From: a virus
Length of the DNA stretch: 64,000 nucleotides
Reading direction: 5' to 3' (one strand)
IMG/VR virus record: IMGVR_UViG_3300029286_003706
Coordinates: 14,011-78,010 of that record
Under the pieces are notes generated by a model, which was not told the origin of the DNA, did no database searches, and saw only the letters and a list, made by a program, of their open reading frames with translations. Every line of letters begins with the position of its first letter. Within the stretch, counting starts at the first letter, position 1. The position numbers and the translations under genes are program-made. Shown piece by piece: positions 4,088 through 51,745 of this stretch.

Positions 4088-4522
4088 ATGAAAAGAGAAC
4101 ATAAATGGGATAAGGATGATACTATCATCGCCCTATATTACACAAAATTTGGTATAAAACATCTTCCGGTTAAAGATGAAAAAGATTTAGCTGAAAATAT
4201 TATTGGGTCATCTTTGGATTCACTTAAAATGTTATCCACCACTTTGGGAAAAACACATGATGTGAGTTTTTCAAAAATTCAAAGGGAAGTTGTTGATGAA
4301 TTCAAAAAAATGCAAGAAACTGATTTTCGGGATGTTGTTCTTGAAATCTTTTCTGATACTGAACGAAAAGTTGTTGTTGAAGAAAGAATCAAGGATCGAA
4401 AAGAAAATGAAAAAGAAGAAAAAGCAAAGGAAGAAAAGAAAAAATTGGATTCCATTTTTCGGAAAATGGGGAAAGACCCATCAAAAATGAGGAGTGTTGG
4501 TGTAAGACCTAAAGAATTTTAA
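4088..4522 (+). CDS. Hypothetical early protein
   Basis: TATATTTG at 4057-4064 upstream. Confidence 0.7.
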   Translation: MKREHKWDKDDTIIALYYTKFGIKHLPVKDEKDLAENIIGSSLDSLKMLSTTLGKTHDVSFSKIQREVVDEFKKMQETDFRDVVLEIFSDTERKVVVEERIKDRKENEKEEKAKEEKKKLDSIFRKMGKDPSKMRSVGVRPKEF

Positions 4523-6184
4523 GCTTCCAGAATCATAAATACGATAAATTTTTCTTTCTAACATGATTTCATGTTCGGTTTTATTTGGATCAAAACCATC
4601 ACGAATTAATTTATCTTTTCTAAAATTAAATCTATGTTTTCTAACACCATTCACTACATAATAGTAGTCGGGTGGTGTTTTACTTAGAAATGTAAAACCT
4701 AATTTTTGATATAATTCACCCTGACTCCAAGAACGATCAGTACAACTAATCACTTCTTTTGGATTATAAGTTTTGATGAAATATTTAAATAATTTTTCGG
4801 CACTACCCACTACTGATGTGTTTAATTTACTACAAAATATCAACATTTCATAAACACCATCAGAATTACTTTGTTTCATAAATTTACGTTTCGATCCAAA
4901 AGTCATTAAAGACACCAATTCATCATTGTAAAATAATCCTAATTTAATAGGTGAACCAACAAAACCCTGTAAATGGTTTTTTTCTAGAAAACAACGAACT
5001 AATTTATTATCTATTATTTCTTTTATGATACATTTACGGGCATAAATTTTATTTGGTGTTTTTCCAAGTAAATTTAAGATTCTAGATTTAACAATTTCCT
5101 GTTTAAATACCCAATCATCTTGAAAAATATGTATTAATTTAATATTAATACTTTCTGATAGTTCTGTTTTAATTGAATGATAATTGTTTTCTTTTTCTTT
5201 TTCATTATGCCAATAAACACCATTAAACTCAAACGCCAATTTCAAATCTGGTAAATAAATATCTAATTCATATGGTGAAATTATATTTCTTTTATTTAAT
5301 TGAATTTCATTATTATAATTTTCTTTAATGAAATTTTGTAAATCTTTTTCTTGATTGGAAACTGAATCATTAAATGGATTACATATTATACAATATGGTA
5401 TTTTATATTTATATCTTTGAATTAAATTATTTATTTTTATATCGAAAATAGTTTTACATTTATCACACTTTATTGTATAAACACCTTTATTAAAAGAAAC
5501 TATTTCACAATTATATTTATCTATTGATTTTTTTAATTGTTTATCTTTATAAATATCAGATGTCATATAATTTTCAGAACCATATTTTTCAATATTAGTT
5601 TTTATCATTTTTTCTTTTATTGTGTCAGATTTAATGGGAAAATTTACACCGAATTTTTTAAAATTGGAATTTTTCATTTTTTCTTTAATTTCATTATTTA
5701 AAAAAAATGTATTATTTTTAATTTTCGTTTCTTTAATTTTATTTTTAACTTTATCAGATTTGGATGGATGACCACCATATATATATATACAAGTATCATT
5801 TCTTTTTTGATGATTTAAATAATTTTCATTACCATATTTTTTTAACTTTGTATGTTTAGATTTTTTTATGATATCTTTATTTTGAAAAACATTTTCAGTA
5901 CCATAAATTTCTATATTTGTTAATTTTCTTTTCTCACTTGAACATTTATTTGAACAAGAATAATAATTATATTTTTTAATATTTTTGTTATAATTATAAA
6001 ATGATATAATCTTTTCTTTATTACATACATCACATTTTGCTAAAATTTTAACACCAGATCCTTTAGATAAAATTTCTATGGGAATTTCTATAATATCATT
6101 AAAATTAAAATTATATCCTAATTCTTTATAATATTTATAATTATTTGGATTGATTGTTATTTTTACACTGGTTGTTATTAACAT
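4481..6184 (-). mobile_element. Putative free-standing homing endonuclease (Zn ribbon, KYG repeats, Vsr/PD-(D/E)xK-like domain, conserved C-terminal domain)
   Basis: KCDVC, KYG repeats, ELDIYLPDLKLAFEFNGVYWH; paralogous to 47535 and 49883; directly behind uvsW. Confidence 0.7.
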
Positions 6185-9304: not shown

Positions 9305-12300
9305 TTATAATTGTTGATTTGTTTGATTAGTTTGATTTAAAATAGATTCACTATATTTTTGATTAAGTGTGTTCAATGTTACTGTTGATTCATCGAAACT
9401 TTTTGAACTGTTTGTTCTAATAAAAAAATTTCTATCCCACGGAGATTTAAAGATAAATCTATTATAATACGAATAACCATATTCATCAATCATGGGATAT
9501 ACTGATGTATCTTTATCTTGATTTATTTTTAATATACTTGAATTTTCATTAACTTTCGAAAACGTAAAATTATTAATCATACCAAAATCAGATATGGTTG
9601 TATCAAACTTAACATTATTATCCATAAATATTGAACTCGTATAATCGAATAAAATTCTATTATAATAATAACTAATTGTTATATAAACACAACGTATTTG
9701 TGGCATAATAAGTGTTACTTTTTCATTATTATATACTTCACATGTAATTGAAACACTTAAATTGGTATTTAAATCACCCGTACTCATCGATTCAAACCCC
9801 CATAAACCAGACCCATATGAAAATTCTTGAAATGTTTCCCCCCAATTAGTATCTAAATTTGCATAATTTGTTGAAGTTAAACCGGATTTTATAATAATAA
9901 TTTCATAATCTTTAACATAATTATCAGAATATAAATTTGCATTGAAATGTCTTCTGTTTATTGTTATTGTAATTCCACTTATAATTGCATCTATTGGTAT
10001 TGATCCATCAAAATTAAAATTACTAATTAAAAGATTATTTGTTGTTATTGGAATTGTTGGTGGAATATTTATTTGTGGGTTTTGTCTTTTATCACATAAT
10101 TTATCACAATTTGTCCATAAATAATTATAATTATAATCACCATTATTACATGTATTTGAAGAGAACTTTTCTGTTATTCCTGTGGTATATATTTCTCTTC
10201 TTGAATAATTTGTATAATAATATAATCCACCTCTAAAAAGATTTATATCATTAAATATTGGTTCATATGGACCGGAAAATCTAAAAATTTCATTTTTAGA
10301 TGGAATTAAATTTGTCGAAACACCAACAATAGATGAAATTTGTGGTTTATCATCTTGTAACGAATTAACAATTCTAGAGATTGGTTCGTTTAATGAATAT
10401 CCCATTATTGATTTTGTATCTGGTCCTTTGTATGGTTCTATTTTATAATTTTTCTGTGAATTTAGGTGAATAGAATCCGGATAATCGATATAAAGAAGAA
10501 ATGGTGAAAATGGTTTTTGCCAATTTGGTATATTTACCATTGTTGATTCTGTGGTATAGAAATTATTTGTCATACCAGTATATGTTTGATTATCATATTG
10601 TGTGATATAATAATAATTTATATATGGTTCATCTTGATATGTAGTATTATTAATTAATGTTATAAAATTATAAGCAGTTAGAAAAATCGAATTATAATTT
10701 GATATATAACTACCATCTTTTTTCAATCCATAATATAAACCGTTTTTTTCATCGTATTTATTTAAATCATTTAAATAAGCATCATTTTCATTATTACTTA
10801 CTACAAAATTAATTATTATTAAAATATTTTTCCATTTTTCATTTAAAATTATATTTATTCCGTTTCTATTTTCAATAATAATATCATTATTAACAATCCC
10901 ATTTGTTTTTATATTTGATGATGTTTCAGAATTATAATATTCGTTTAAAATTATACTAAATTTATAATCATTAAAATTTTTATTTGTATTATATAAAATT
11001 TTATAAATTTTATTATTAACAATATCAATATTATCAATTGATTTTATTGAAATTTTTAACCCTTTAAATAATGTTAAAGATAAATTAGAAACATCACCAA
11101 AATTAAATATAGAATATTTATCATAATTTTGATTATATAAAATTCCACCATCTAAAGAATTCATTTTGTTTTTAAAAAAGTAAGTGAAATAGTCGAAATC
11201 TGTATTAAAATATGAACCAATATCAAAACCCAAACCTTCCTGACTAAATATAAAATCACCATCAATATTAGTTGATTGAAATTTATAATATTGTTTATTT
11301 ATTGGGTTACTATTATAAAAATTTCCAATTCTATAAAAATAATCTAAGTTTTTTGATAAGACATCTGGATGTGTTAAAAACGGATCTATTGTTTTGTTAA
11401 ATGTTCCACCTACTGATAAACTATTATTTAATTTATAATCATAATCGGAATGACTTATAGAACCCATAAACCCCCATTTACAAATGGTTTGATTTTTTCT
11501 CCATATATCAGATAATTGTGTTTGATATCTATCACCAGTTTTATAAATTTTAGAATAATTATCAATTTGTGAATTTGGATTTTGAAATGGGTATTGTTTT
11601 ATTTCAAATAATTCATCATCAGCGATATATTCTGATGATACATTGCTTATTTTATATTGAAAACTTGTTCCATATTTTTCATTTTTATAATCACGTGGAA
11701 TAGAAGTGTCGGTGTAATCTATAGCATATAATTTTTCTTCCGGAGTATCAACATAATAAGTTTGTTCATAATCAAAATTTGAAAAATTACTATTAATTCT
11801 TTCAAAATCAAAATCTTTTATATCCGAAAATTTAATTTTATAAATGTTAAATTGTAATGGTTGGCTATCTTTTGATTCCGTTTTTAATGATCTATAAAAT
11901 TCCGAATTTTTCCCATTTATCCAATATTCTAAATTTTCTGAATTACTATTAATTCCCCAATCAGTCTGAATGTAATATTTATTGATTACTTCATTTTTAT
12001 TATTAAAATTAAAATCAGAATATGTTATTCCTGTTCCATTTTTTAAAACATGAAACATTCCATCAATTTCAATTAAATATAAATCACCATACATATAATT
12101 CATTGTTTGCGTTTGTCCGGAAATTGGGGAATTTTCATAATACCAATCAATTTGAAAATCAGTTGAATAATTTGTTAAAATATTAAAATTTTGATATTCT
12201 ATATTACAAGTTTTTATATTAACTCTTTGTGGGTGATATTTTAAACTGGTGATTCCAGATGGGTCACCAATTGGATCATCCCATATTTTATCCATAATAT

Positions 12301-13471
12301 CATCTGATATTATTTTAAAAACTTGAACACCATTTTGAATTACTTTTTTAACAGGATATAAACCAGATATTAATTTTTTCCTATAAAAATCATTTGTATT
12401 ATCTAAAAAAATATAATAATTTTTGGTATCATCCCAATTCTCAACAAATGGATTTATAGATGGATATTGCCATTGATACGAATCTGAATCATAAGAAGTT
12501 GTACCAGTTGAACCAGATACTATGATATTATTAATCAACCACAATCCGGATTTTATTTCTGGTGTAATATATGATGTTATACTACCAACAAAATCCATAG
12601 TTTCTGAATAAAATCCATAATATCTATTCATTGAATATTTTTTCAAATTGTTTGGTGTGGCTGGTGTATCATCAAATAAAAATTTCAAATTTAAAATATT
12701 TGGAAATATTAATTTGTTATTTTTATATCCTTCTGTTATAAGTTTTTCCATTCTAAAATGTAGTTGTTCAATGGATAATGTATCTTCTAAATAAAAATCT
12801 TTTTCAGTATAAATTCCAGAATCGTAATCCATACCATACCATTTTGAAAATTCAGTTTTCCTAACATCAAAATAAAATGGTACTGTTGGGAATCTAGAAT
12901 TTGATGTATAATTTTTATCTAAAAATTTACCAAAATTTGATTTAGTAGTTAAATCAAAAACTTTAATACATTTCCACTTATCTATAATTTCAGAATAAAA
13001 ATTATTTTTATTTAAAGTAGATAATTCAAAATTATTATTATTATCCAAATTATAGTTTGATGGATCGTCACATCTTAAAATTATAAAATTGGATGGTAAA
13101 GAAGTGTTTCTTATATATAACGGTGCAAAATATTCAAATTCTTCTTCATACCAAGTATCTTCAACTTTATTTGCACCAGATAAATAAGTTGTATCAAACT
13201 GATATGAATAATCACTATAAGTTGAACTTGCATCATTATCATATCTAACATAAAATGCCATATCCGATGGTAGTTTATCATAAAATTTTGGAATTTTATC
13301 TTCTAAATAATCGTTTTTATTTATTGAAAAATGCTTAAATTTATTACTACTTAAATCTGATGAACTATTAAAACTTTCTAAATATAATTTATCTAAACTA
13401 CTAACAACTAATTTTATATTTGTTGTTAGTAATGGATTTGTTCTTATCAATTGGAAACTTGTTCTTATCAT
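9305..13471 (-). CDS. Large probable virion structural protein (baseplate/tail-associated)
   Basis: 1388 aa, N/Y/S/T-rich with beta-strand character, last gene of a late-type operon; no motif-level identification. Confidence 0.5.
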   Translation of the reverse strand: MIRTSFQLIRTNPLLTTNIKLVVSSLDKLYLESFNSSSDLSSNKFKHFSINKNDYLEDKIPKFYDKLPSDMAFYVRYDNDASSTYSDYSYQFDTTYLSGANKVEDTWYEEEFEYFAPLYIRNTSLPSNFIILRCDDPSNYNLDNNNNFELSTLNKNNFYSEIIDKWKCIKVFDLTTKSNFGKFLDKNYTSNSRFPTVPFYFDVRKTEFSKWYGMDYDSGIYTEKDFYLEDTLSIEQLHFRMEKLITEGYKNNKLIFPNILNLKFLFDDTPATPNNLKKYSMNRYYGFYSETMDFVGSITSYITPEIKSGLWLINNIIVSGSTGTTSYDSDSYQWQYPSINPFVENWDDTKNYYIFLDNTNDFYRKKLISGLYPVKKVIQNGVQVFKIISDDIMDKIWDDPIGDPSGITSLKYHPQRVNIKTCNIEYQNFNILTNYSTDFQIDWYYENSPISGQTQTMNYMYGDLYLIEIDGMFHVLKNGTGITYSDFNFNNKNEVINKYYIQTDWGINSNSENLEYWINGKNSEFYRSLKTESKDSQPLQFNIYKIKFSDIKDFDFERINSNFSNFDYEQTYYVDTPEEKLYAIDYTDTSIPRDYKNEKYGTSFQYKISNVSSEYIADDELFEIKQYPFQNPNSQIDNYSKIYKTGDRYQTQLSDIWRKNQTICKWGFMGSISHSDYDYKLNNSLSVGGTFNKTIDPFLTHPDVLSKNLDYFYRIGNFYNSNPINKQYYKFQSTNIDGDFIFSQEGLGFDIGSYFNTDFDYFTYFFKNKMNSLDGGILYNQNYDKYSIFNFGDVSNLSLTLFKGLKISIKSIDNIDIVNNKIYKILYNTNKNFNDYKFSIILNEYYNSETSSNIKTNGIVNNDIIIENRNGINIILNEKWKNILIIINFVVSNNENDAYLNDLNKYDEKNGLYYGLKKDGSYISNYNSIFLTAYNFITLINNTTYQDEPYINYYYITQYDNQTYTGMTNNFYTTESTMVNIPNWQKPFSPFLLYIDYPDSIHLNSQKNYKIEPYKGPDTKSIMGYSLNEPISRIVNSLQDDKPQISSIVGVSTNLIPSKNEIFRFSGPYEPIFNDINLFRGGLYYYTNYSRREIYTTGITEKFSSNTCNNGDYNYNYLWTNCDKLCDKRQNPQINIPPTIPITTNNLLISNFNFDGSIPIDAIISGITITINRRHFNANLYSDNYVKDYEIIIIKSGLTSTNYANLDTNWGETFQEFSYGSGLWGFESMSTGDLNTNLSVSITCEVYNNEKVTLIMPQIRCVYITISYYYNRILFDYTSSIFMDNNVKFDTTISDFGMINNFTFSKVNENSSILKINQDKDTSVYPMIDEYGYSYYNRFIFKSPWDRNFFIRTNSSKSFDESTVTLNTLNQKYSESILNQTNQTNQQL

Positions 13472-13486
13472 TTATATAAAATTAAT

Positions 13487-14938
13487 TTATGCTGTACTAG
13501 TATTAGTTATATTATTTGTATTATTTGTATAATTTATTCCTTTGTAATAATTTCTATAATTGGAAATGTTAAAAATTAATAAAAATTGATAAATTTTACC
13601 ATCGTTGGATTCAAAATAAATTTTTATTTTTCTTGTTTTCTGTTGATGAATAACACTATTATCAACTATATATTCACTACCGTTTGCAGAACTACCATTA
13701 AGTTTAAACCACAATTTAGTACCTATAATAAAATTATTTTTTGGTCCTATTATTTTGGTTTTATCTTGACCAGTTTCTACAATATTTGTTAAATCTGAAA
13801 AATAAGGATGTAATGTAACCAATAAATTAGTAGATGACCCTGACCAAAAATTCAAATTATTTATATTTGCAATTGGTAAATATAATTGATTTGTAGAACC
13901 AGATGATCCCAAATTATATTCTTGTGTATTTAAAATATATGGTGCACTATTTGTTGTCATCCCACTACTTATATTTACACCAGCATCAATATCCATAAAC
14001 CAAATAAATTGATTATTTTGTTGAGGATATAAATCATCATTATAATCTACTAATAAAATTTGATTAAATGGATCATTATAAAATATATTTGTTCCACCAG
14101 ATGTATAATTTCTATTTGATAATAATCCCAAATTACCATTTTGTGCTATATTTGATAAAATAATTTTATAATCATCTATCATATATACACTATTAATATA
14201 TCTTCTAGTCCCACCAGTGGATGGAAGAACATAATCTTCACATTCTATTTTTATTTGTGTTGTTGTATTATTTATTATTTCTTTTATTAATGTATCATCT
14301 TTATATAAATATATATGAAGTTCACCTTGAATTTTATTTATAATTTCTTCAAGTGATTTAATTCTATCGGTTAATGATCCCAAATATTCAAATAAATTTA
14401 ATGTATTATTCATATCACCTTTATAACTAACAGCAATATTTTTATCTATATGTTTATACAATATGTTATTAACATAAAATTGATCGTCTATATGAGAATA
14501 TACACCTTTTGTATTTAGTGTCGAATCCATGTTTACGACACTTTGATCTAGTGCGGCCTCAGATATAATCAATCCGTTTTCACTTAATACATCATTAATA
14601 TTATCTGGAAAATCAATAATGGATATGTTACTCCATTCTGATTCTAATATGGAATCAGGCCAACCAACTTCGGAAATAGCAGAAATTCTAATTTCAACTC
14701 GTTCATTTTGTTGTATTGGTATATCTAATTGATTTATGTTTGGTGTATCAGCATCTTGAACATCTTCTACTTTCCAATACCAAACACCTGCCTTTTCATC
14801 CCAATATCTTTTACGTACATCACTCAAATAACTATTCCAATTAGAAAATTGTGCAGTTATAGTCTGATTTGTTGTACTTTCAGAAATTGTTGATACTTGA
14901 GTACTTTGAATAACTTGTTTATTTTTTTGTTGTGCCAT
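13487..14938 (-). CDS. Probable virion structural protein
   Basis: Fn3-like segment (VEIRISAISEVGWP...ESEWS), coiled coil, same operon. Confidence 0.5.
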   Translation of the reverse strand: MAQQKNKQVIQSTQVSTISESTTNQTITAQFSNWNSYLSDVRKRYWDEKAGVWYWKVEDVQDADTPNINQLDIPIQQNERVEIRISAISEVGWPDSILESEWSNISIIDFPDNINDVLSENGLIISEAALDQSVVNMDSTLNTKGVYSHIDDQFYVNNILYKHIDKNIAVSYKGDMNNTLNLFEYLGSLTDRIKSLEEIINKIQGELHIYLYKDDTLIKEIINNTTTQIKIECEDYVLPSTGGTRRYINSVYMIDDYKIILSNIAQNGNLGLLSNRNYTSGGTNIFYNDPFNQILLVDYNDDLYPQQNNQFIWFMDIDAGVNISSGMTTNSAPYILNTQEYNLGSSGSTNQLYLPIANINNLNFWSGSSTNLLVTLHPYFSDLTNIVETGQDKTKIIGPKNNFIIGTKLWFKLNGSSANGSEYIVDNSVIHQQKTRKIKIYFESNDGKIYQFLLIFNISNYRNYYKGINYTNNTNNITNTSTA

Positions 14939-14957
14939 ATTTTAATATTTTTTATTT

Positions 14958-16676
14958 TTAAACATTTGTTGTATTTGATATATTGGTGGTTGATGTTGTT
15001 GACGATGGTGTTAATTTATACCCCTCAGTTGGATTCGAATTACCATTTTTTGTTGTATAACGATATTGAATTCTAAATTGAACAATATGTTGGGGTGCTG
15101 TTTGATCGGATAAAATTGGATCTGGTATATTCCAAAATCCCCTAATTCTATATTTTGGTTCAATAGAATTTGTGACACTATTAACACTTGTTAATTGAGA
15201 AATTATAGTAGATAAGTTTTTTGTTTGTAAATCTAAATCCAATTTTAATTTATTCAATTCAGTATTAATGGATACTTTTTCAGCTTGTGATAAATTTCCA
15301 GAATTTAAATTTTTTAATCTATCTTGTATCGAATTTTGTATTTGAGATATTTTTGTTTTTACGGTATTTTTTTCAGAATGTAATTTTCTTATTAAATCTT
15401 GGTTTACACTGTCAGTTAAATGTTTATTTATTTGAACCACTTTAAAATTTTCTGATTGTAATACGGGGGAATTTGGTTTGGTTCCATATTTAGTTGGTAT
15501 TTTTTTTAATATTATATCTTTCAAAATTTCACCATAATCATAAACAGTATCAATATAATAATTTGCCAAATTTATATTATTATCAGTATCTAAAACCAAA
15601 TCATTCGCGAAAAATGACATCCCCTTTGACCACAAAGACCCGATAATATTATTATCTGTATTTATTGGTTTTACAAATAAAACATTAAATTCATCAAAAC
15701 CAACTGTTATTTGAACGGTTTTATTCTCTGCGATATTACTATAATATTTTAAAACATTAGTTCCTATGGTAATTGGGTCATAACCCTCTACTATTTCAAG
15801 TCTAACTTTATTATTAGAATAATCAGTATTAACTTCTGCAATTTTATATCTGGTAGAACTATTTAACGCATTTATAATAAGTTCATCACCAATCGATAAT
15901 GTTTTAATAGTTCCATCTTTTCCATAATATTTTAAATCGGTAAGATGATACCAAATTTTATTATTGATATCATCAACTTCTGTTTTTATAACTGAAAATG
16001 TACCATAATAATTTAATTCTTTAACCGCGAGACTAAATATTTGTTCATCATATGGTGAAACAACATTTGTTATTACTCCAATATTTAATGGATTTTCCAA
16101 CCAAGATATAAAATCATTGATATTAATATCATTTCTATTTAACCAATTTGTGACAAAATCATTATATGATATGGTTCCATTACTTGTTAGGGTTCCATCA
16201 TTATTTTTTTCAAATTCTAGAATATATCTACGGGATAATATTTTATTTACATCATGTGTGATTTTATCGGTTAAATCTATATTTACAGCCAACATAGGAT
16301 TCATCAAGGATTCAAAAAAACTATTATTTATTGTTGTGAAATTTGAAACTTTATTAATATCTTGGATTGGAACCGGCTCCCTGTTTAGATCACTAGTTAT
16401 TATTTTCTGAACACTTTGACCATTTGTAATGAATGTAGACCCATTAATTGATGACCAACGTTTCATGTTCTGATTTAAAACTTCAATTTGTGTTTTTAAA
16501 GAACCAACAGTGGGTAATGAGAAACTTTGTGTTGTTCCAAAATCATCATAATTAATTTTAACAGTAGATTGTTGTGATGATACCAAATCATTTATTTTTG
16601 TGAGTATTTCAACACAATTTTTGTTCAAAATTGTAACTTTTTCTGCCAATGATACGAATGAATTAACTTGATCCAT
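14958..16676 (-). CDS. Probable virion structural protein with coiled coil
   Basis: 572 aa; AATATATA motif upstream (16696-16703, minus strand). Confidence 0.5.
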   Translation of the reverse strand: MDQVNSFVSLAEKVTILNKNCVEILTKINDLVSSQQSTVKINYDDFGTTQSFSLPTVGSLKTQIEVLNQNMKRWSSINGSTFITNGQSVQKIITSDLNREPVPIQDINKVSNFTTINNSFFESLMNPMLAVNIDLTDKITHDVNKILSRRYILEFEKNNDGTLTSNGTISYNDFVTNWLNRNDININDFISWLENPLNIGVITNVVSPYDEQIFSLAVKELNYYGTFSVIKTEVDDINNKIWYHLTDLKYYGKDGTIKTLSIGDELIINALNSSTRYKIAEVNTDYSNNKVRLEIVEGYDPITIGTNVLKYYSNIAENKTVQITVGFDEFNVLFVKPINTDNNIIGSLWSKGMSFFANDLVLDTDNNINLANYYIDTVYDYGEILKDIILKKIPTKYGTKPNSPVLQSENFKVVQINKHLTDSVNQDLIRKLHSEKNTVKTKISQIQNSIQDRLKNLNSGNLSQAEKVSINTELNKLKLDLDLQTKNLSTIISQLTSVNSVTNSIEPKYRIRGFWNIPDPILSDQTAPQHIVQFRIQYRYTTKNGNSNPTEGYKLTPSSTTSTTNISNTTNV

Positions 16677-16760: not shown

Positions 16761-17204
16761 ATGAAAAATCTAAAAACGTTTGAAAGTTTTAACGTTAAAA
16801 AACAAGAACAAAAAGGATTTACAAGTAATATAGAAAATGACACTTTGAAAAATGATAATTTTAGAAAAGTGTTATATACGAGTAAACATATGCAACTTGT
16901 ATTAATGAGTTTAAAACCCGGTGAAGATATTGGAAAAGAAACACATACTAATGTTGATCAATTTTTTAGATTTGAAGCTGGTAATGGTAAATGTATTGTT
17001 AATGAAAATGAATACTTAGTAAATAATGGTGATGTTTTAATAGTACCATGTGGTAGTACACATAATATAATAAATATCGGAAAATCAGATTTAAAAATAT
17101 ACACAATATATACACCACCTAATCATAAAGATGGAATAACATTCGGAACAAAATCCGAAGCATCTAATAGTAAAGAAAAATTTGATGGAATAACAACCGA
17201 ATGA
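16761..17204 (+). CDS. Cupin-domain protein with capsid-targeting-like leader
   Basis: PGEDIGKETH...DQFFRFEAG...GDVLIVPCGSTHNIIN; N-terminus MKNLKTFESFN. Confidence 0.85.
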   Translation: MKNLKTFESFNVKKQEQKGFTSNIENDTLKNDNFRKVLYTSKHMQLVLMSLKPGEDIGKETHTNVDQFFRFEAGNGKCIVNENEYLVNNGDVLIVPCGSTHNIINIGKSDLKIYTIYTPPNHKDGITFGTKSEASNSKEKFDGITTE

Positions 17205-18136
17205 TAACAAAATTTATTCAATACATAAAAGAAAATGATGATTACGATGAAAAACTTGTCAGAATAATGGCTTGGTTATTTATGTCATATGTATATGATA
17301 ATAATGATGGAATGAAAGAATCAAATTGGATTAATGATAACAGAATGGGAATATCTTTTAAATTGGCAATTAAATATTTATCTGAAAATGGTTTTGTTGA
17401 ATTTATAAATGATAAATGGAAAATAACAAAAAAAGGAATAGATGAATTATTTTCATTTTTTAAAATTCCCACAAATAGAGATGAATGGTTGAATTATGAT
17501 AATAGTTGGTTGAAAAAATATGATACTGTTCAATATCCAATTTCTAGGATTCCAACTGAAATATTTGAAAGAGAATTTGAAAAACACACATCAGAAAATA
17601 TTAAATATATACTTGAAAAAAGTGAATATTATGATATTGGTAAATGGTGGTATAAATATCAAAGAGGTACAATAGGTTGGTGGACAAAAATGAACAAATA
17701 TCTTGGTTTAAAAGGAGATTTAATGCCAGATGTTGATTCACTAATTTTATATAGGGGTATTAATTTAAAATGTGGTTCACCAGATAATGAAGAATATTTT
17801 AATAAAGAAATTTGTATTGGAATAAAAAATGGTGAAATTAAAAAAGGTGATAAAATAAAATGTAATAAATCCAGTTGGTCATTATCATCTAGTGTAGCTA
17901 AATCTTTCGCTAGTGGTAAAAAGGGTTTATCGGATCCAATATCAATGAAAGACACCGAAATCGGTATTGTTTTAAAAAATGAATTTAAATCTTCTGAAAT
18001 TTTATTAGATTCGGATTGGGTTAATAATCATAAATTTTTAAAAGATAAATCTGTATTTCCAAGTGAAATGGAGGTAATTATTCAACCAAAAACGAGATAT
18101 GTTGAAATAATTCATATTTTTGATAATAAAAATTAA
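17201..18136 (+). CDS. ADP-ribosyltransferase (R-S-E clade) with leader
   Basis: LYRG, SSWSLSSSVAKSFA, SEMEVII; N-terminus MITKFIQYIKE. Confidence 0.65.
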   Translation: MITKFIQYIKENDDYDEKLVRIMAWLFMSYVYDNNDGMKESNWINDNRMGISFKLAIKYLSENGFVEFINDKWKITKKGIDELFSFFKIPTNRDEWLNYDNSWLKKYDTVQYPISRIPTEIFEREFEKHTSENIKYILEKSEYYDIGKWWYKYQRGTIGWWTKMNKYLGLKGDLMPDVDSLILYRGINLKCGSPDNEEYFNKEICIGIKNGEIKKGDKIKCNKSSWSLSSSVAKSFASGKKGLSDPISMKDTEIGIVLKNEFKSSEILLDSDWVNNHKFLKDKSVFPSEMEVIIQPKTRYVEIIHIFDNKN

Positions 18137-18179
18137 CTAAATTAAATTTTGGACTTCCACTAATTAATATATATTTGTA

Positions 18180-18480
18180 GTGTTGTTCTTTGATATTTGG
18201 TTCCGGACTAAAAACTTAGTTCGGGTAAAATCAATAAAGTAAAAATAATTTTCGGAGCCTACCATAACAGGATGTGCCAACCGTATATAAATTATACTGA
18301 CCGATGGAATGTCGGTTGTTGAACGTGGAGGCCGGCTCTGTGGACGAACGTTTCATTTCGGTGAAACCTAAGAAGCATCTTGTCTGTGAAACGTTAAAAG
18401 AGACGAGTTGAAAGACCCAGAAACCACTATTTAGTGGTCATTCATAATGTTCATCTTTTACCAAAAAATCAAAAGAATAA
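18180..18480 (+). ncRNA. Candidate structured non-coding RNA (~300 nt), class unknown
   Basis: GC-enriched, no long ORF, complementary 5' and 3' ends, several hairpins including a UUCG loop, promoter motif at 18166-18177 and terminator at 18487-18512. Confidence 0.6.
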
Positions 18481-18486
18481 ATTATT

Positions 18487-18512
18487 AAAAAACCCCGAAT
18501 TCGGGGTTTTTT
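18487..18512. terminator. Bidirectional intrinsic terminator
   Basis: Perfect palindrome aaaaaaccccgaattcggggtttttt. Confidence 0.85.
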
Positions 18513-19692
18513 AGTTATTTTTCAAATGTTTTTCAAATATTTCTTTTACTTTATCACGATATTTAACAGGATATATTATTGAATCATGAACAGTAAAAAT
18601 TTTGATATCTTTAATTTGTTTATAAATATCATTTACGACCTTTCCAAATATAAAATCACTTTCCATTCGCATTAGAACGTGACTCAAATATCTATAATCA
18701 CCCTTTGTTTTTTTAATTTTTACAATGAAATCAAATATTTTTGGAAATAATTGTTGAAACATTTGACATTGAATTGATTTTATATTGTTATGTCCAAAAA
18801 GAACTTTATATGTTAATATTTTAACTAAACTTCTATTGTTTTTTTGATTGAAATAATTTGGAAAATGATAAATAATATATTCATAGAACATACCGTTTTC
18901 AACAAGTTCTGTAAAAAGTTTTAATTCTTTATCAGAAACATCCATTTCATACCTTAATAATCTGGAAAGAAAAAATGGTTGTGAATTCGGTAAATCTATT
19001 TCTTCAATTTCTTCATCGTCTATTTTGAGATAATTTTTTCGAATTTGTTTTTTAAGAACAGTAAAGTTTGTATGAAATCTACCATAACTATCAAAAATGA
19101 AATATAAATTTGAATTTTTGATATGATTTATTGAATAGAAATTTTTAAAATATTTTTCATTTGTAATTTCATCACTAGATTTTAAATCACTGATACATTG
19201 TAAAGATTTCTCACTATTTATAGATACATGCTTAAGATCATCAACCAATCTTTTTCTAATATTTATATCAATTGGACTATCACTATAAAGTATATTTCTA
19301 AGATAATCTTTACTAACTCTTTTATTAATAATATTATCATACACAGTAACTCTTCTGATTTTATCTATATCAAACCAATTGAGGACATATGTTCTGGATT
19401 TTTTACCAACACAATAATTAGATGTCATTTTCATAAAACCATTATCAACTAAAAAATCAATATAATACTTATAAAATTTACCATATCGACTTAATAATAT
19501 TTTACTAAATAAATTAAATTCATAATCATCAACATCATAATCATTTGCATTTAATTGAAATTTAATAATTATATCGTTAATAACATTTAACAAATTAGAT
19601 GTTTTTAACATTTTTCCATTATATTCGATAAATGGTGTTTTATTTAAAAAAATGAATTTTTCTGGACAAAAGAATTTCATTCCCTTTTTCAT
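18511..19692 (-). CDS. Minimal family-A/T7-like polymerase (TV-Pol-like) with a possible N-terminal winged helix
   Basis: YGRFHT, motif A EIDLPNSQP, motif B K...YKVLFG, L...ES, motif C TVHDSI; no exonuclease domain. Confidence 0.65.
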   Translation of the reverse strand: MKKGMKFFCPEKFIFLNKTPFIEYNGKMLKTSNLLNVINDIIIKFQLNANDYDVDDYEFNLFSKILLSRYGKFYKYYIDFLVDNGFMKMTSNYCVGKKSRTYVLNWFDIDKIRRVTVYDNIINKRVSKDYLRNILYSDSPIDINIRKRLVDDLKHVSINSEKSLQCISDLKSSDEITNEKYFKNFYSINHIKNSNLYFIFDSYGRFHTNFTVLKKQIRKNYLKIDDEEIEEIDLPNSQPFFLSRLLRYEMDVSDKELKLFTELVENGMFYEYIIYHFPNYFNQKNNRSLVKILTYKVLFGHNNIKSIQCQMFQQLFPKIFDFIVKIKKTKGDYRYLSHVLMRMESDFIFGKVVNDIYKQIKDIKIFTVHDSIIYPVKYRDKVKEIFEKHLKNN

Positions 19693-24097: not shown

Positions 24098-25522
24098 ATG
24101 TTAGAAATTAAAGGAAAATATACAACTGCTAAAATTATGACTGATGTTGTAGAACTGTCAGCTTTAACACAAATTTATAATATGGTATCACATCCAGCAT
24201 TTACTAATGAAATAGTTATGCAAATAGATTTACACGCTGGTGCTTCAGCACCAATAGGATTTACGATGCCTTTATCTGAAAAAATTGTCCCGAATACAGT
24301 ATCGGTGGATATTGGATGTGGGGTTTTAGTCATTTGCATGGGTGAAAATTTCACTACTAACAAAGATAAGTTATTGAAAATGGATGAAAAAATTAGGAAT
24401 ATTGTTCCAATGGGTAATAATATCCAAGAAAAATCAGTCATTCCATCAAAATATTTTGAAAAGAATTTTCCTTGGAAAGAAACTAATGATATTGTTAAAA
24501 AATTCATTATTACATATAACAAAAAATTCAATACTAATTTTAATAGTATAGAATTTACATATGACTGGTTTTTGAAAAGACAAAAAGAAATTGGAATGAA
24601 ACAAGATGCTGAATTGGCAATAGGATCACTCGGTAGGGGGAATCATTTTATAAGTATTGAAAAATCAGTTAATTACAATTCTACTTGGTTACTTATTCAT
24701 TGTGGTTCAAGAAATTTTGGTAAAATGATTTGCGAATATCACATGAAAATTGCTAAAAAGGATTTAGACAACAAAAGAAATGTTGTGTTAACAAAAAAAA
24801 TTAATGAAATTAAATTAAATTTTTCTGGTGATATAATTCCATCTAAAATTAAGGAAGCAAAAAAAGATTTGGGTATTGATTTTGAAACAAATATGATTGG
24901 AATGGAATATCTTGAAGGACAACACGCTATGGATTATTTCATTGATATGGTATTTGCACAAAAATATGCTCAATTTAATCGTTCAACTATTTCTAATAAT
25001 ATTCTTAAATCCATTGGAGAAAAAGAAACTGATAGAATTGAATCTATTCATAATTATATAGACTTTTCAGATTTGATTCTTAGAAAAGGTGCAATTCGTT
25101 CATATATTGATGAAAGATTAGTTGTTCCAATTTCTATGGCTTTTGGTTCTTTTTTATGTAAAGGTAAATCAAATCCGGATTTTAATTATAGTGGGCCTCA
25201 CGGTGCAGGAAGATTAATGAGTAGGGGGGTTGCATCCAGATCAATTGATATGAAAGATTTTGAATTTCAAATGAAAGGAATTGTATCAACATCAGTAGTA
25301 AAAAGTTGTTTAGATGAAAGTCCAAATGCTTATAAAAAACCAAAGGATATTGAAATTGGAATAGAACCTACTGCTGAAATTATTGATCATTTGATTCCAC
25401 TCTTAAATATTAAAGATAAAAATGAAACTACCAATTGGAAAGAAAGAAAAGAGAAAGAGAAAAGAGAAAAATCTGAAAGGGTAAATCATAAGGAAATGAG
25501 AAATGCAAGGGGTAAATTTTAA
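24098..25522 (+). CDS. rtcB: RtcB-family RNA ligase
   Basis: DLHAG, VDIGCG, SLGRGNHF, HCGSRNFG, HNY, RKGA, HGAGR, DESPNAYK. Confidence 0.95.
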   Translation: MLEIKGKYTTAKIMTDVVELSALTQIYNMVSHPAFTNEIVMQIDLHAGASAPIGFTMPLSEKIVPNTVSVDIGCGVLVICMGENFTTNKDKLLKMDEKIRNIVPMGNNIQEKSVIPSKYFEKNFPWKETNDIVKKFIITYNKKFNTNFNSIEFTYDWFLKRQKEIGMKQDAELAIGSLGRGNHFISIEKSVNYNSTWLLIHCGSRNFGKMICEYHMKIAKKDLDNKRNVVLTKKINEIKLNFSGDIIPSKIKEAKKDLGIDFETNMIGMEYLEGQHAMDYFIDMVFAQKYAQFNRSTISNNILKSIGEKETDRIESIHNYIDFSDLILRKGAIRSYIDERLVVPISMAFGSFLCKGKSNPDFNYSGPHGAGRLMSRGVASRSIDMKDFEFQMKGIVSTSVVKSCLDESPNAYKKPKDIEIGIEPTAEIIDHLIPLLNIKDKNETTNWKERKEKEKREKSERVNHKEMRNARGKF

Positions 25523-29021: not shown

Positions 29022-29870
29022 ATGGAAAATTTATTGGAAAGGAATTTTAATGAAAAGACAGGATTGGAATTTAATAAGTGTTATAAGGAATTTATGCCAA
29101 AAATTACGTGGTATTTGGCTAGTACATGGTTAGTTAATAATGTTGAAAAGGCAGAAGAATATGCACATAGGTCTTTCATTCAAGGTTTGGAAAAAATCGA
29201 TACGTTCGATCCAGAAAAAGCACAATTGATTACATGGTTAACTCAAATATCAAAGAACTTGGTCATTAAAGATTATAAGGATGCACTAAGATTCGATTCT
29301 GTTTCACTTGATGCTGAAATTGACGATACACCGGGAATTATTAATATCATTAAATATGAAACTGGTGAAGTTGAAAATGAAGAATATGAAGAAAATTTAA
29401 AAAAATGTGAAATTATTAAAAATACAATAATGACACTACCACCAAAATATAAAAAGGTGATGATTTTAAGGGAAATTCAAAGAATGCCATATAAGGACAT
29501 CGCTGATTTTATAAAAAAGGAAGAAAAAACCATTTTGGGAAAAAATGATAAGATAAGATTATCTACACCGGAAGATTTTTATTCTTTATTTATTGATAAC
29601 ACCAAAGGTAGTGGTGATATTAAAATTCATTTTTCAAATGGAAAAAACGAATTTTCAAGGGTTGTAAGGACGGGTAGTAACACAACCATAGTCAGGGAAG
29701 AAATAGAATGGGATCGTATGTCTGGGGATAGATTTGATGTGTTTTCTGATAGTAATTACTGTAATATGATTTATATTACGACAACAAATCTATCAACTGT
29801 AAAATCCCAAATAAAAAAAGGTAGGAGTTTAGTAAAAAATAAGGTTTATCGTAAATTTAAACAAATTTAA
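29022..29870 (+). CDS. Sigma-70/ECF-like RNA polymerase sigma factor with an insertion in region 4
   Basis: Region 2 AEE...F...FDPEKAQLITWLTQISKN; region 4 LPPKYKKVMILRE...YKDIA and LSTVKSQIKKGR. Confidence 0.85.
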   Translation: MENLLERNFNEKTGLEFNKCYKEFMPKITWYLASTWLVNNVEKAEEYAHRSFIQGLEKIDTFDPEKAQLITWLTQISKNLVIKDYKDALRFDSVSLDAEIDDTPGIINIIKYETGEVENEEYEENLKKCEIIKNTIMTLPPKYKKVMILREIQRMPYKDIADFIKKEEKTILGKNDKIRLSTPEDFYSLFIDNTKGSGDIKIHFSNGKNEFSRVVRTGSNTTIVREEIEWDRMSGDRFDVFSDSNYCNMIYITTTNLSTVKSQIKKGRSLVKNKVYRKFKQI

Positions 29871-40033: not shown

Positions 40034-40133
40034 ATTTTATGGACTTTTTACAAAGATATAAAAAATTATTAATAAATAAAAATAAAATGGACTTTTATTT
40101 ATTAATATATAATAAGAAACAATAAATAGTAAT

Positions 40134-40286
40134 ATGAAAAAAGTTTTTAGTTTTTCAATAGATGAAAACATTATAAAAAATCTTGATAAATTCTGTAAAG
40201 ATGGTTTGATAACAAAATCAAAATTGATTAATAAAATTATACAAGATTTTATTGAAAAAGAAAATAAGAAAAATGATAGTAAGTGA
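40134..40286 (+). CDS. Ribbon-helix-helix (CopG-like) protein, absent from the ORF track
   Basis: MKKVFSFSIDENIIKNLDKFC...TKSKLINKIIQDFI, 50 aa, overlapping the endonuclease start. Confidence 0.7.
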   Translation: MKKVFSFSIDENIIKNLDKFCKDGLITKSKLINKIIQDFIEKENKKNDSK

Positions 40287-41415
40287 TATTATTCAAATTA
40301 CAGTAAGCACCAAAGATATTTCTAGATTAAAAGAATATTATGGATTACTTAAAGTTGGAGATATTCAAGATATAAAAATTGATTATTTATCAAAAAATAG
40401 TTCCAGAAAAATTCTTGTAAAATGTGATATTTGTGAAAAAGAAAAAAAATTATCCTATGGTAAGTATAATAAAAATATAAAAAAATATAATATTTATAGT
40501 TGTTCTAATAAATGTTCAATAATAAAAAGAGAAAAAAGTAATTTATTGAAATTTGGATGTAAATATTATTCTCAAACGAATGAATATAAAGATAGATATA
40601 AAAAAACATGTTTAGAAAAATATGGTGTTGAAAACTATTTTCAATCTGAGATAGTAAAAAGTGAAATTAAAGAAGTTAATTTGAAAAAATATGGTGTAGA
40701 ACATCCCACACAGTCAAAATCAATAAGAGATAAAATCAAAATAACGAACGAATCGAAGTCTGATGAAATTAAAAATGAAATGAAAGAAAAAACAAAACAA
40801 TCCAATTTAGAAAAATATGGTGTTGAATATTCTTTTCAATCTGATATAGTAAAGAATAAAATTAAAGAAACCAATTTAAAAAAATATGGTGTTGAATATA
40901 GTTCTCAAAATAAAGACAATAGATCAAAATACAAAATTACTTGTTTGAAAAAATATGGAGTTGATAACGTATCCAAATCCGATGAAATTAAAAAATTAAA
41001 ACAAGATGTTTGTTTAGAAAAATATGGTGTAAATCACACTTCACAAGTTCCTGAATTTTATATTAGTCAACAAAAATCCGGTTATAGATTATTTTTTCAC
41101 GACAATACAAAACTTAATTATAGGGGAACTTATGAAAAACATTTTTTAGATTATTGTTTTGATAATAATATATTAATTGAACGGGGAAAAAGAATAAAAT
41201 ATTTATTCGACAATAAGGAACATTATTATTTTTCTGATTTTTATTATGAACCAAAAAATTTGATTATAGAAATCAAAAGTGATTGGACATATAATAAATA
41301 TAAAATTATCAATGATATAAAAAGAGAAAGTACAGAAAAATTAGGATATAATTATATGTTCATTTTTAATAAAGATTATAAAGAATTTGAAGAAGTAATT
41401 AAATTAAATATATAA
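40273..41415 (+). mobile_element. Putative homing endonuclease (Zn ribbon, KYGV repeats, PD-(D/E)xK domain)
   Basis: VKCDIC, several LEKYGV repeats, GTYE...YFSDFY...IIEIKS. Confidence 0.75.
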
Positions 41416-49070: not shown

Positions 49071-49830
49071 CCATTCTAAACCAAGAAACTGTCGTTTGAC
49101 CCTTTATTTCTTCGTTAACTTTATCTACCATAGACTGACCACCACTTATAATATCTTGAGCATTATAGTTGAAATTACCCGGCATATTAAAATTAAAACG
49201 ACCAATCTGTTCGCCCATTCTAACTCTACACAACCCAATACAATATCTTTTAAACATTTCAAAATCAAACAATTCTTCTTCTTGAATTCTAACCCACACT
49301 TCTAACATATGATTGGATTCACCGGGATATGATTCTAAACTACCCAAAAAATTAAGTTGTTTGTTTATTGGGTTAAAACTAAATTTAACAGTATCTTTTG
49401 TCATTTTATTTATTTCATCGGAAAAATAACTGATTACTGAACGATAGAGTGCGAGGTCCCCCGCAGTGGTTACAAAGCTAGTTAAGAAAGGCTGATTTGT
49501 AACCCCCAAATTAATAGATAGATTTGGTGCTTGAATACCAATTCTAAATAAAGATAAATCATTTATTTTTATAATTCTTGTTATATTTTCAACTTCTTCT
49601 GGCATGATTAAATATTTGAATCTAGAATATGTGTCCCTCAACAACATGTCTTTTTTCATAAAATAATAAAATTTTTGAAGAGAAAATTGATAATTTTTAT
49701 AGAAATATTCTAGGGCTAATTCTTTCACTACACGTTTTACTTCTTTATCAACCAAAACTTTTGGTAGTGCACCAGAAAACGTCAAGTCGGCTTGTATGAT
49801 GTCTATTAATTGTTCAATTGTTATTGACAT
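49063..49830 (-). CDS. Neck/head-completion protein (T4 gp13-like)
   Basis: 255 aa; ALEYFY, FSFNPINKQL, KRYC...G..IGRFNFNMPGNFNYN..DI...G pattern; AATATATA upstream. Confidence 0.65.
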   Translation of the reverse strand: MSITIEQLIDIIQADLTFSGALPKVLVDKEVKRVVKELALEYFYKNYQFSLQKFYYFMKKDMLLRDTYSRFKYLIMPEEVENITRIIKINDLSLFRIGIQAPNLSINLGVTNQPFLTSFVTTAGDLALYRSVISYFSDEINKMTKDTVKFSFNPINKQLNFLGSLESYPGESNHMLEVWVRIQEEELFDFEMFKRYCIGLCRVRMGEQIGRFNFNMPGNFNYNAQDIISGGQSMVDKVNEEIKGQTTVSWFRMAR

Positions 49831-49882
49831 AAACTTTAAATGTTTTTATTTATATATTAATTTTATAAAGACAAAAACTCAA

Positions 49883-51745
49883 ATGATATTAGATAAGGAA
49901 GTAAAAATAACAATTAATCCAAAAGTAGATAGGACATATTTCAAATTGGATTATTATGACATTAATATTGTGAAAGATCCATTTCAAATTTTTATTAAAA
50001 TGGAAGATTTAAATAAAAGTTCTAGGATTAAGATAAATGTAAAATGTGATGTTTGTAATAATGAAAAAATTATTACTTATTTATCATATAATGAAAATAT
50101 AAACAATTATGGTGTTTATGCTTGTTCTCCAAAATGTGCATCTTTTAAAAATAAATTAACAAATAAAGAAAAATATGGTGATGAAAATTTCAATAATAGG
50201 GAAAAAAGTAAGATAACAAATTTAGAAAAATATGGTGTTGATAATGTTCAAAAATATAAAGATATAAAAAATAAGTCTGTTGATACCATTAAAAATAGTT
50301 ATGGTTATGAAGTTATAATGGATAAAGTAAGAAGTAAAGTAAAAGAAAAATATGGAAAAGATCATGCATTACAAGTTGATGAATTATATAAAAAATCTGA
50401 AAATACCAAATTAGAAAAATATGGTGATAAAAATTATAATAATAGAGAATTGTGTAAAAAGACATGTTTAGAAAAATCAGAAATAGAAAAAAACAAAACA
50501 GTTGAAAAAAGAAAAGAAACATGCTTAGAAAGATATAATAAAGAATATTCTATTACTTCTGATATTGTAAAAAATAAAATATTAAAAATATTTAATGAAA
50601 AATATGGTGGAAATACACCATATGCTGATAAGAATTTAAGATTAAAATCTGCTGAAAAATATACTAATGAACATATAAATTATATTAAAGATAATATTAA
50701 AGAATTTCAATGTGAATATATTAATCATAAAAATAAAAATAAAAATAATTGTAATATTGAATATACTTTAAAATGTATTAGGACTAATAAATTATTTACA
50801 ATATCTTATTCAAATTTAAGAATACGAATTTTGAAAAAATTAGAAATTTCACCTTTTTTTAGAGATGAATATGGTAAATCTAATATGGAAAAAGATTTGT
50901 ATAATTTCATTAAAGAAAATTATACAGAAAACATTTTATTAAACAAAAAAGATATAATTAAACCATTAGAAATAGATATTTATCTTCCAGATTTAAAATT
51001 AGCATTTGAATTTAATGGATTATTTTGGCATAACGAAATAAATAAATCAAATGATTATCATTTAGAAAAAACAGAATTTTGTGAACAACAAGGAATACAT
51101 CTGATACATATTTATGAGGATGATTGGATATATAAACAAGAAATAGTTAAATCCAGAATTCTTAATTTACTTGGTAAAACACCAAACAAAATTTATGCTA
51201 GAAAATGTATCATAAAAGAAATTACTGATAATAAATTAGTTTACGAATTTTTAAATACAAATCATCAACAAGGGTTTATTATTTCAAAAATTAAAATAGG
51301 ATTATTTTACGAAAATGAATTAGTATCTTTAATGATTTTTGGAAATCAAAGAATATCAATGGAAACAAAAAGTAAAGAAAACACTTATGAAATATTAAGA
51401 TTTTGTAGTAAATTAAATACATCAGTTATTGGTGGATCTGAAAAATTATTTAAATATTTTATCGAAAATTATAATCCAAAAGAAGTGATTAGTTATGCGG
51501 ATAGATCGTGGAGTCAAGGTGAATTGTATAAAAAATTAAAATTCAATTTCGTTGGTAAAACCCCATCAAATTATTATTATATTGTTGATGGTATTAAAAA
51601 ATACAAATTCGGTTTTAGAAAAGATAAATTAATTCGTGATGGTTTTGATCCAACTAAAACTGAACATGAAATAATGTTGGAAAGAAATATATTTAGAATT
51701 TACGATAGTGGAAGCTTAAAATTCATTTGGAAATTTAATATATAA
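49883..51745 (+). mobile_element. Putative homing endonuclease, paralogue of 4481 and 47535
   Basis: Start re-assigned to MILDKEVKITINP; VKCDVC, EKYG repeats, EIDIYLPDLKLAFEFNGLFWH. Confidence 0.7.

Follow-up and report, generated by a model that had tools for sequence, protein, structure and literature searches.

A tnpB-less IS200/IS605-family derivative that very probably carries a TnpB guide-RNA scaffold in a very AT-rich lake phage

What kind of element is the GC-rich, well-folding stretch that lies near position 18,300 of a very AT-rich piece of phage DNA? The piece, hereafter the window, comprises 64,000 nucleotides (nt) of the 78-kb IMG/VR virus record IMGVR_UViG_3300029286_003706, whose completeness is estimated at 11%. 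Window DNA has a GC content of about 22%, and the GC fraction rises to 0.39-0.41 over positions 18200-18499, compared with 0.19-0.27 in the surroundings. The island sits between two convergent open reading frames (ORFs), 17201-18136 (+) and 18511-19692 (-), and holds no ORF longer than 41 amino acids (aa). An original prediction, made from the letters of the DNA, had seen here an unannotated structured RNA gene of about 300 nt, a novel or little-known phage non-coding RNA (ncRNA) with a possible pseudoknot. The GC-enriched island without a long ORF is indeed there; its identity appears to be another one. The segment 18148-18445 on the plus strand is very probably a tnpB-less derivative of a phage-adapted insertion sequence (IS) of the IS200/IS605 family, of the ISDra2-like TnpB type. 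The coordinates of its parts are collected in Table 1.

Searches of known RNA families gave little guidance. The 333-nt stretch folds better than all 100 of its shuffled versions (z -4.3 on the plus strand, z -3.6 on the minus strand), and no Rfam family matches at the gathering score anywhere in the window. With the limit relaxed to E<=10 over 18100-18560, essentially only terminator look-alikes were seen, the rimP leader scoring 32.7 bits against a cut-off of 47. The original prediction had found no hallmarks of tRNA or tmRNA, and ARAGORN likewise reported neither in the window. RNase P, 6S and SRP RNAs, riboswitches and the large ornate RNAs were likewise without a match. A blastn search of the region against 50,697 GenBank phage records returned no match.

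Homologues were found among viral contigs. With an 18-mer taken from the GC-rich core, 11 loci from a few related samples were retrieved, and blastn aligns window positions 18285-18436/52 with viral-contig loci at 87-92% identity. At two of them, L008 and L013, there is an overlap between the homologous sequence and the final ~36 codons of same-strand ORFs of 394 and 403 aa, and both ORFs carry HTH_OrfB_IS605, OrfB_IS605 and Cas12f1-like TNB domains. The L008 protein, encoded at 12105-13286 of its contig, matches the solved ISDra2 TnpB with an E-value of 2e-72; when aligned with 9yyg, a designed relative, it displays the DLG, EDLN and HDRD motifs together with both CxxC pairs. In a multiple alignment, the copies are alike through ...GTGGT(A/C)(A/G)TTCAT and unrelated from the next base. 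Since the divergence sets in straight after TTCAT, we place the right end of the transposon at 18445, with insertion-site DNA beyond it. The right ends of distant relatives read TTCAT, TTCAA or TTCAC. In the full elements, L008 and L095, the left-end and right-end hairpins have the loop TCTTTAG in common, which would be anticipated of sites recognized by TnpA.

From eight close copies (alignment A1) and their RNAalifold consensus we built a covariance model, R1. Its matches include the 3' ends of 15+ more distant TnpB genes, whose identity to L008 is only 36-57%; R1-positive TnpB loci include L037, L036, L030, L033-35, L084, L039, L028/29/86, L085, L047, L043 and others. A Y1 TnpA gene adjoins eight TnpB relatives, three of which also have R1 matches, and on account of this neighbour the clade belongs to IS200/IS605. 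An alignment of 23 sequences has 44 pairs with 95.9% of cells paired, and 25 of the 44 are changed on both sides, counts that are inflated because the alignment was fitted to R1. The covariation score is 0.419, versus 0.04-0.07 with slid partners and 0.134 with shuffles, and none of 500 shuffles scored as high; the gap to the slid controls is thus still large. Helices 1, 2, 6 and 7 covary throughout, and the invariant G-U pairs fit the plus strand. Across 22 sequences there is no variation in the UUC at positions -5 to -3 or in the GAA that precedes the terminal hairpin. In the ISDra2 omegaRNA, nucleotides -5 to -3 form a pseudoknot with an upstream GAA-type triplet (PMC10097598); because the equivalent bases are invariant here, covariation does not separate the nested from the knotted partner.

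Homologous copies overlap full tnpB genes and the structure covaries across the TnpB clade, which is why we read the core as an omegaRNA scaffold. Judged from sequence, the core at 18301-18445 is a TnpB guide-RNA scaffold together with the transposon right end, that is, an RNA of a known kind and not a new class. Of this identity, a tnpB-less IS200/IS605 remnant that carries an omegaRNA scaffold, we are highly confident.

These results leave the alternative of a new class of free-standing structured phage ncRNA, closed by a stem joining its 5' and 3' ends and equipped with a pseudoknot or a switch, extremely improbable. It could draw on the missing Rfam, tRNA and tmRNA matches, on the good z-score and on a minimum-free-energy fold that includes both the closing stem and the pairing 18253-59/18334-40, but homology ties its core to the tnpB 3' end and to the right end of a transposon. 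The predicted closing stem (18186-18200/18461-18477) is present in the window copy; however, its 3' strand belongs to the flank beyond the conserved unit, and the homologues lack it. The duplex (-12.2 kcal/mol) is near chance, being matched by 4.5% of background windows, and L024 and L009, two loci with copies of the cassette, do no better than background. The 5' strand of this stem has a conserved local partner at 18226-18234. The two crossing pairings, 18253-59/18334-40 and 18267-75/18375-83, take their 5' partners from a segment of one subtype, found only in the window and L024/L025 and different in L009, and their 3' partners fall in helices 3-4 of the family structure, with which they compete. 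Similarly, the proposed switch partner at 18386-95 includes ACGTT (18391-95), which is part of the covarying helix 2.

Other parts of the original prediction have found a place in the new picture. Its hairpins at 18300-18316, 18351-18366 and 18423-18438 are helices 1, 5 and 7, the first and last of which are supported by covariation, and its hairpin at 18203-18224 is the core of a 5' module and is kept in all three variants of that module. The predicted terminator was recovered by a scan as a bidirectional one; it is flanking phage DNA outside the mobile unit, and the homologous cassettes lack it. What stands is a structured RNA-type element on the plus strand, with a promoter motif and a terminator and without an Rfam match. 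What falls, given the tnpB-linked homologues and the covariation, is its status as a novel or unclassified phage ncRNA. The original prediction had itself tied the novelty to the lack of a known family, and in that spirit the novelty is removed, because the core is now assigned to one.

The cassette begins with a promoter motif. The overlapping motifs AATATATA and TATATTTG, predicted at 18166-18177, are present and belong to TTAATATATA, a sequence with 14 occurrences in the window versus 3.5 expected. Of the 13 other copies, twelve are followed by an ORF start at a distance of 6-55 nt, and the cassette copy alone has no ORF behind it. Example sites of TTAATATATA are 8021, 16696, 21537, 22137, 36041, 40102, 49851 and 56457, often with GGACTT ~13 nt upstream, and the motif may be the consensus of the phage's own transcription system. 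Full-length elements have it as well: in L008, L095 and L013 it follows the left-end hairpin and precedes the start of tnpB, so the IS lineage itself carries a putative phage-type promoter. The motif is also found in front of a 407-aa TnpB-like gene of the record.

Between promoter motif and scaffold, where tnpB would be expected, lies the 5' module of stem-loops. It is 96.7% identical to that of L024 over 120 nt. A related observation is that the scaffold is only ~90% identical between the same two copies, whose flanks are unrelated; exchange of the scaffold with other copies could account for this, as could a tighter constraint on the module. In L009, the stem-loop differs by four transitions, each of which keeps G-U or A-U pairing on the plus strand. 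We count this as weak evidence, because by our own estimate it is a roughly 1-in-8 chance event. Smith-Waterman comparison of the module with the L008, L013 and L016 elements gave nothing better than shuffles, barring one AT-rich run. Both blastn-short against all fetched loci and a metagenome scan returned the module from the cassette copies and already known contigs only (L105 = L009, L106 = L024/L025). A 15-mer at window positions 29244-29258 and an 18-mer in L023 lie in unrelated reading frames and were set aside as chance matches. Likewise rejected was a small ORF of 20 codons (GTG 18180 to TAA 18242), which in L009 has a preceding stop, no start codon and non-synonymous changes. What marks this variant of the element is its phage setting, the phage promoter motif at its start, the missing left end and a 5' stem-loop module not described before.

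At least two other contigs, also from lake phages, contain the same cassette, each time at an unrelated locus. Window positions 18150-18436 are 79% identical to L009 by blastn, and neither blastn nor tblastx extends the similarity to L024 or L009 beyond the ~300-bp cassette into the flanks. Summed contig depth over 18314-18415 is roughly 20-90x that of the flanks in three lake metagenomes, so the scaffold behaves as a high-copy repeat in the lake community. The core 18-mer also occurs in 32 prokaryotic contigs, all by chance; none has an R1 match, and no link to a host emerges.

Two further observations concern individual loci. L008 has a second R1 match of 75 bits at 11312-11441 (-), ~700 bp upstream of its full tnpB element; it is a more divergent omegaRNA type with a canonical TCTTTAG hairpin and no obvious tnpB. 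In L009 (reverse strand; also in L105), a sequence resembling a tRNA T-arm and acceptor, GGTTCGAGTCCGG..., lies ~60-100 nt upstream of the cassette and borders the partial left end on its upstream side; this may be a tRNA gene of the phage adjoining the insertion.

The window copy is in early decay. Its scaffold overlaps a non-coding relic of the last tnpB codons, and a second relic, from the N-terminal end of tnpB, lies 10 kb away, cut off just before the TTAATATATA of the next gene. The phage therefore carries decaying IS pieces. Several findings weigh against our reading of the cassette. A left-end hairpin is absent upstream of 18150 (L009 retains the 3' half only), and a 9-nt deletion in the right-end hairpin takes out the TCTTTAG loop, which is otherwise constant in tnpB-linked copies, barring single-base variants. 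Helix 6 has an A-C mismatch, and R1 scores the copy at 165 bits versus 186-191 for full copies. The record, incomplete as it is (see above), contains no cognate full-length tnpB; its 407-aa TnpB-like protein is only 27% identical to the L008 type, and its gene has no R1 match alongside. Our reading also gives no account of the arrival of the cassette, with its sharp right end, at three unrelated loci. Besides the fitting of the covariation alignment to R1, the clade has no Rfam family, and family membership thus rests on our own model.

With the left-end hairpin absent and the right-end loop lost, mobilization of the window copy by TnpA now seems very unlikely. The short form of the right-end hairpin is shared, with GGTCATTCAT, by L024 and by a third variant in metagenome contigs. 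The third short form, GCCATCAAAAATGGTCATTCAT, comes from a lake metagenome (run X1, on a contig that diverges at 18413); its stem is apparently changed on both sides relative to that of the window, suggesting a sub-family of short-hairpin scaffolds.

How much function is left? One answer is that the cassette is an inert relic of a decayed IS copy, its structure reflecting past selection on an omegaRNA, and that it is now neither used by a TnpB nor functional otherwise, even if transcribed by read-through. We take this as a serious possibility that falls somewhat short of probable. The absent left-end hairpin, the truncated right-end hairpin and the broken pair in helix 6 all agree with it, as do the stop inside the tnpB codons, the second tnpB fragment, the missing cognate TnpB and guides that vary among copies and give no informative matches. 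Against it stands, first, the intact copy of the phage promoter motif that the cassette keeps immediately upstream. Where the scaffolds of the window and L024 differ, pairs are preserved, the helix-6 mismatch of the window excepted; helix 5 survives two indels; the module is nearly identical in two phages without common flanks; and the architecture persists in at least three contexts.

The other answer is that the window copy still serves as a guide for a TnpB acting in trans, as has been proposed for PATE-encoded omegaRNAs. On the present analysis this is a tentative proposal, possible though not quite probable. Transcription by the phage would start a few bases past TTAATATATA, run through module and scaffold into the flank and stop at the terminator. 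The product would be a precursor of ~330 nt, in which the 3' flank from 18446 would act as the guide. Provided in trans, a cognate TnpB would attach to the scaffold and cleave DNA in which the transposon-adjacent motif is followed by the flank sequence, which is the same locus in insertion-free genomes, and recombination would then copy the cassette back in.

The guide of an omegaRNA consists of the 16 nt directly 3' of the scaffold (PMC10097598). For the predicted guide of the window copy, the window itself offers a lone near match, at 50133-50148 with two mismatches, which is preceded by TCCAA and is within chance expectation. Two exact 18-mer matches in viral contigs lie in unrelated, GC-richer DNA and are uninformative. 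The 3' flanks of the window copy, L024 and L009, hence their guides, are unrelated. No joint that skips the cassette was seen in contigs of four DNA runs, so that the empty-site allele was not recovered; we treat this as a blank and not as evidence. L008 and L095 share sequence from TTTTAAAATGAAT onward, which leaves no exact position for the left boundary or the transposon-adjacent motif and, without the motif, no basis for predicting a target.

A third use of the cassette would be that of a domesticated guide-RNA gene no longer moved by TnpA. Promoter, 5' module and scaffold would then provide an extra guide for a phage TnpB encoded elsewhere, which would cut co-infecting relatives without the insertion; the module would be needed for RNA stability or processing, and large lake phages would harbor a multi-guide system. 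The loss of the TnpA recognition features with the scaffold helices kept, the presence of a phage promoter motif and a terminator, and, from the window to L024, a smaller divergence in the module than in the scaffold are all in keeping with such a gene. Related contigs also combine gene-less scaffolds with tnpB: G006 has a cassette of the same type, a second gene-less scaffold and an L008-type tnpB start at the contig end, and G003 has a gene-less copy and a full TnpB that is 63% identical. The TnpB of G003, however, has its own, much weaker R1 match of 21.9 bits. Moreover, the module is known in three sequence variants only and so shows no real covariation, and the window holds no partly matching guide target beyond chance. 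Overall, we consider domestication improbable.

Table 1. Features of the cassette and related elements. Positions refer to the window.
Feature	Position	Strand	Basis or remark
Putative phage-type promoter motif: GGACTT, spacer, TTAATATATA	18150-18173	+	exact matches 18151-18173 and 40089-40111
5' module standing in place of tnpB	18174-18300	+	~125 nt; only in the window and L024/L025, first half in L009
Long imperfect stem-loop, core 18203-18224	18190-18234	+	predicted on 3-sequence alignment
Variable middle	18243-18282	+	inside 5' module
Small hairpin	18283-18297	+	inside 5' module
Non-coding relic of last 36 tnpB codons	18298-18405	+	89% identity to L008 TnpB residues 358-393; one TGA inside
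TnpB omegaRNA (reRNA) scaffold	18301-18445	+	145 nt; 87-92% identity to 11 viral-contig loci; R1 165 bits
Helix 1	18301-05/18311-15	+	consensus structure
Helix 2	18322-26/18391-95	+	consensus structure; all 5 pairs covary
Helices 3-4	18329-41/18375-85	+	consensus structure; helix 3 covaries at two pairs
Helix 5	18350-56/18361-67	+	consensus structure; specific to close copies
Helix 6	18405-09/18414-18	+	consensus structure
Right-end hairpin (helix 7) with flanking GAA/TTC	18420-18443	+	consensus structure
TTCAT, last bases of the transposon right end (transposon-encoded motif)	18441-18445	+	divergence of all copies directly after
Predicted guide segment, begins AATGTTCATCTTTTAC	18446-18465	+	position from omegaRNA architecture (PMC10097598)
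Bidirectional intrinsic terminator	18484-18515	both	terminator scan; shared with the convergent 393-aa ORF (18511-19692, -)
N-terminal tnpB relic, codons 2-73, no start codon	7803-8018	+	78% identity to L008 TnpB residues 2-73

The 407-aa TnpB-like gene (L016:1396-2619 (-), corresponding to G000:C1:10692-11915) lies outside the window. In a pairwise alignment, its product has Gly at the position of the catalytic Glu and neither of the CxxC pairs, and could be a nuclease-dead relative of TnpB.

The wider neighborhood adds context. The 311-aa and 393-aa proteins encoded next to the cassette match no Pfam or PHROG families and have no relatives in the viral contigs, so synteny cannot be used. The record encodes RtcB, a helicase and several DUF7487 homing-endonuclease-like genes. 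Three DUF7487 proteins fall within the 64 kb, at 4481-6184 (-), 40252-41415 (+) and 49796-51745 (+), and the first of these, checked against PHROGs, matches homing/HNH-endonuclease families. The RtcB RNA ligase is encoded at 24098-25522, making this a genome rich in selfish and RNA-repair genes. At 13487-16676 (-), adjacent ORFs of 572 and 483 aa match consecutive halves (9-540 and 541-754) of phrog_29329, a PHROG of unknown function; the pair may be a split or interrupted large gene.

The assignment removes a false lead, since a well-folding, GC-rich, Rfam-negative phage island turns out, by our reading, to be the remnant of a transposon guide RNA. Because the omegaRNA clade has no Rfam model, similar remnants will recur in scans of phages for ncRNAs. 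Our results also document that ISDra2-like TnpB elements, by carrying the phage's own promoter motif, have adapted to large lake phages of very high AT content, that their guide-RNA scaffolds reach high copy in lake-phage communities, and that several phages retain, at loci unrelated to one another, a cassette without a gene but with an additional conserved 5' stem-loop. If the cassettes are used in trans, they would constitute natural multi-guide TnpB systems in phage-phage conflict. In the literature we found nothing specific on phage-borne gene-less omegaRNAs; the closest systems are the following.

The omegaRNA or reRNA of ISDra2 TnpB was described by Karvelis 2021 (PMC8612924), and its cryo-electron microscopy structure has been solved (PMC10097598). 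As in ISDra2, tnpB and the scaffold of the present clade share a strand, the scaffold lying at and past the 3' end of the gene; it stops at the right end, which is followed by the flank as guide. A series of stems, a terminal hairpin and UUC just before the guide complete the likeness, which is one of architecture. For ISDra2 TnpB, a scaffold of 116 nt is sufficient and the 5' region is dispensable (PMC10097598); the 145 nt of the window copy exceed that length. In contrast to ISDra2, the window copy has no nuclease gene and a shortened terminal hairpin, it carries a phage-type promoter and a foreign 5' stem-loop module of 125 nt, and no Rfam model covers its clade.

The PATE-like mini-elements of IS200/IS605 type, described in Geobacillus stearothermophilus by Meers et al. 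2023 (PMC10055086), are protein-less and often encode omegaRNAs that need the TnpB of other elements in trans (PMC10055086). The window cassette resembles them in being gene-less, in keeping scaffold and right end, in needing TnpB from elsewhere and in occurring at several loci. PATEs, however, retain both hairpin ends and are mobilized in trans by TnpA, whereas the window cassette has neither the left hairpin nor the right loop; it also differs in residing in large lake phages, behind a phage promoter motif and with an extra 5' module.

A third parallel is provided by TldR proteins, domesticated nuclease-dead TnpB-like repressors with fixed guides (PMC10705468). There, too, a TnpB/omegaRNA pair has been exapted and detached from transposition, and in the 407-aa TnpB-like protein of the record the catalytic Glu and the zinc-finger cysteines are apparently missing. 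Unlike a TldR locus, its gene lies 20 kb from the cassette, and the protein is distant from the cognate type. TldR guides are fixed, whereas those of the cassette are not conserved among copies and have no target that we could find.

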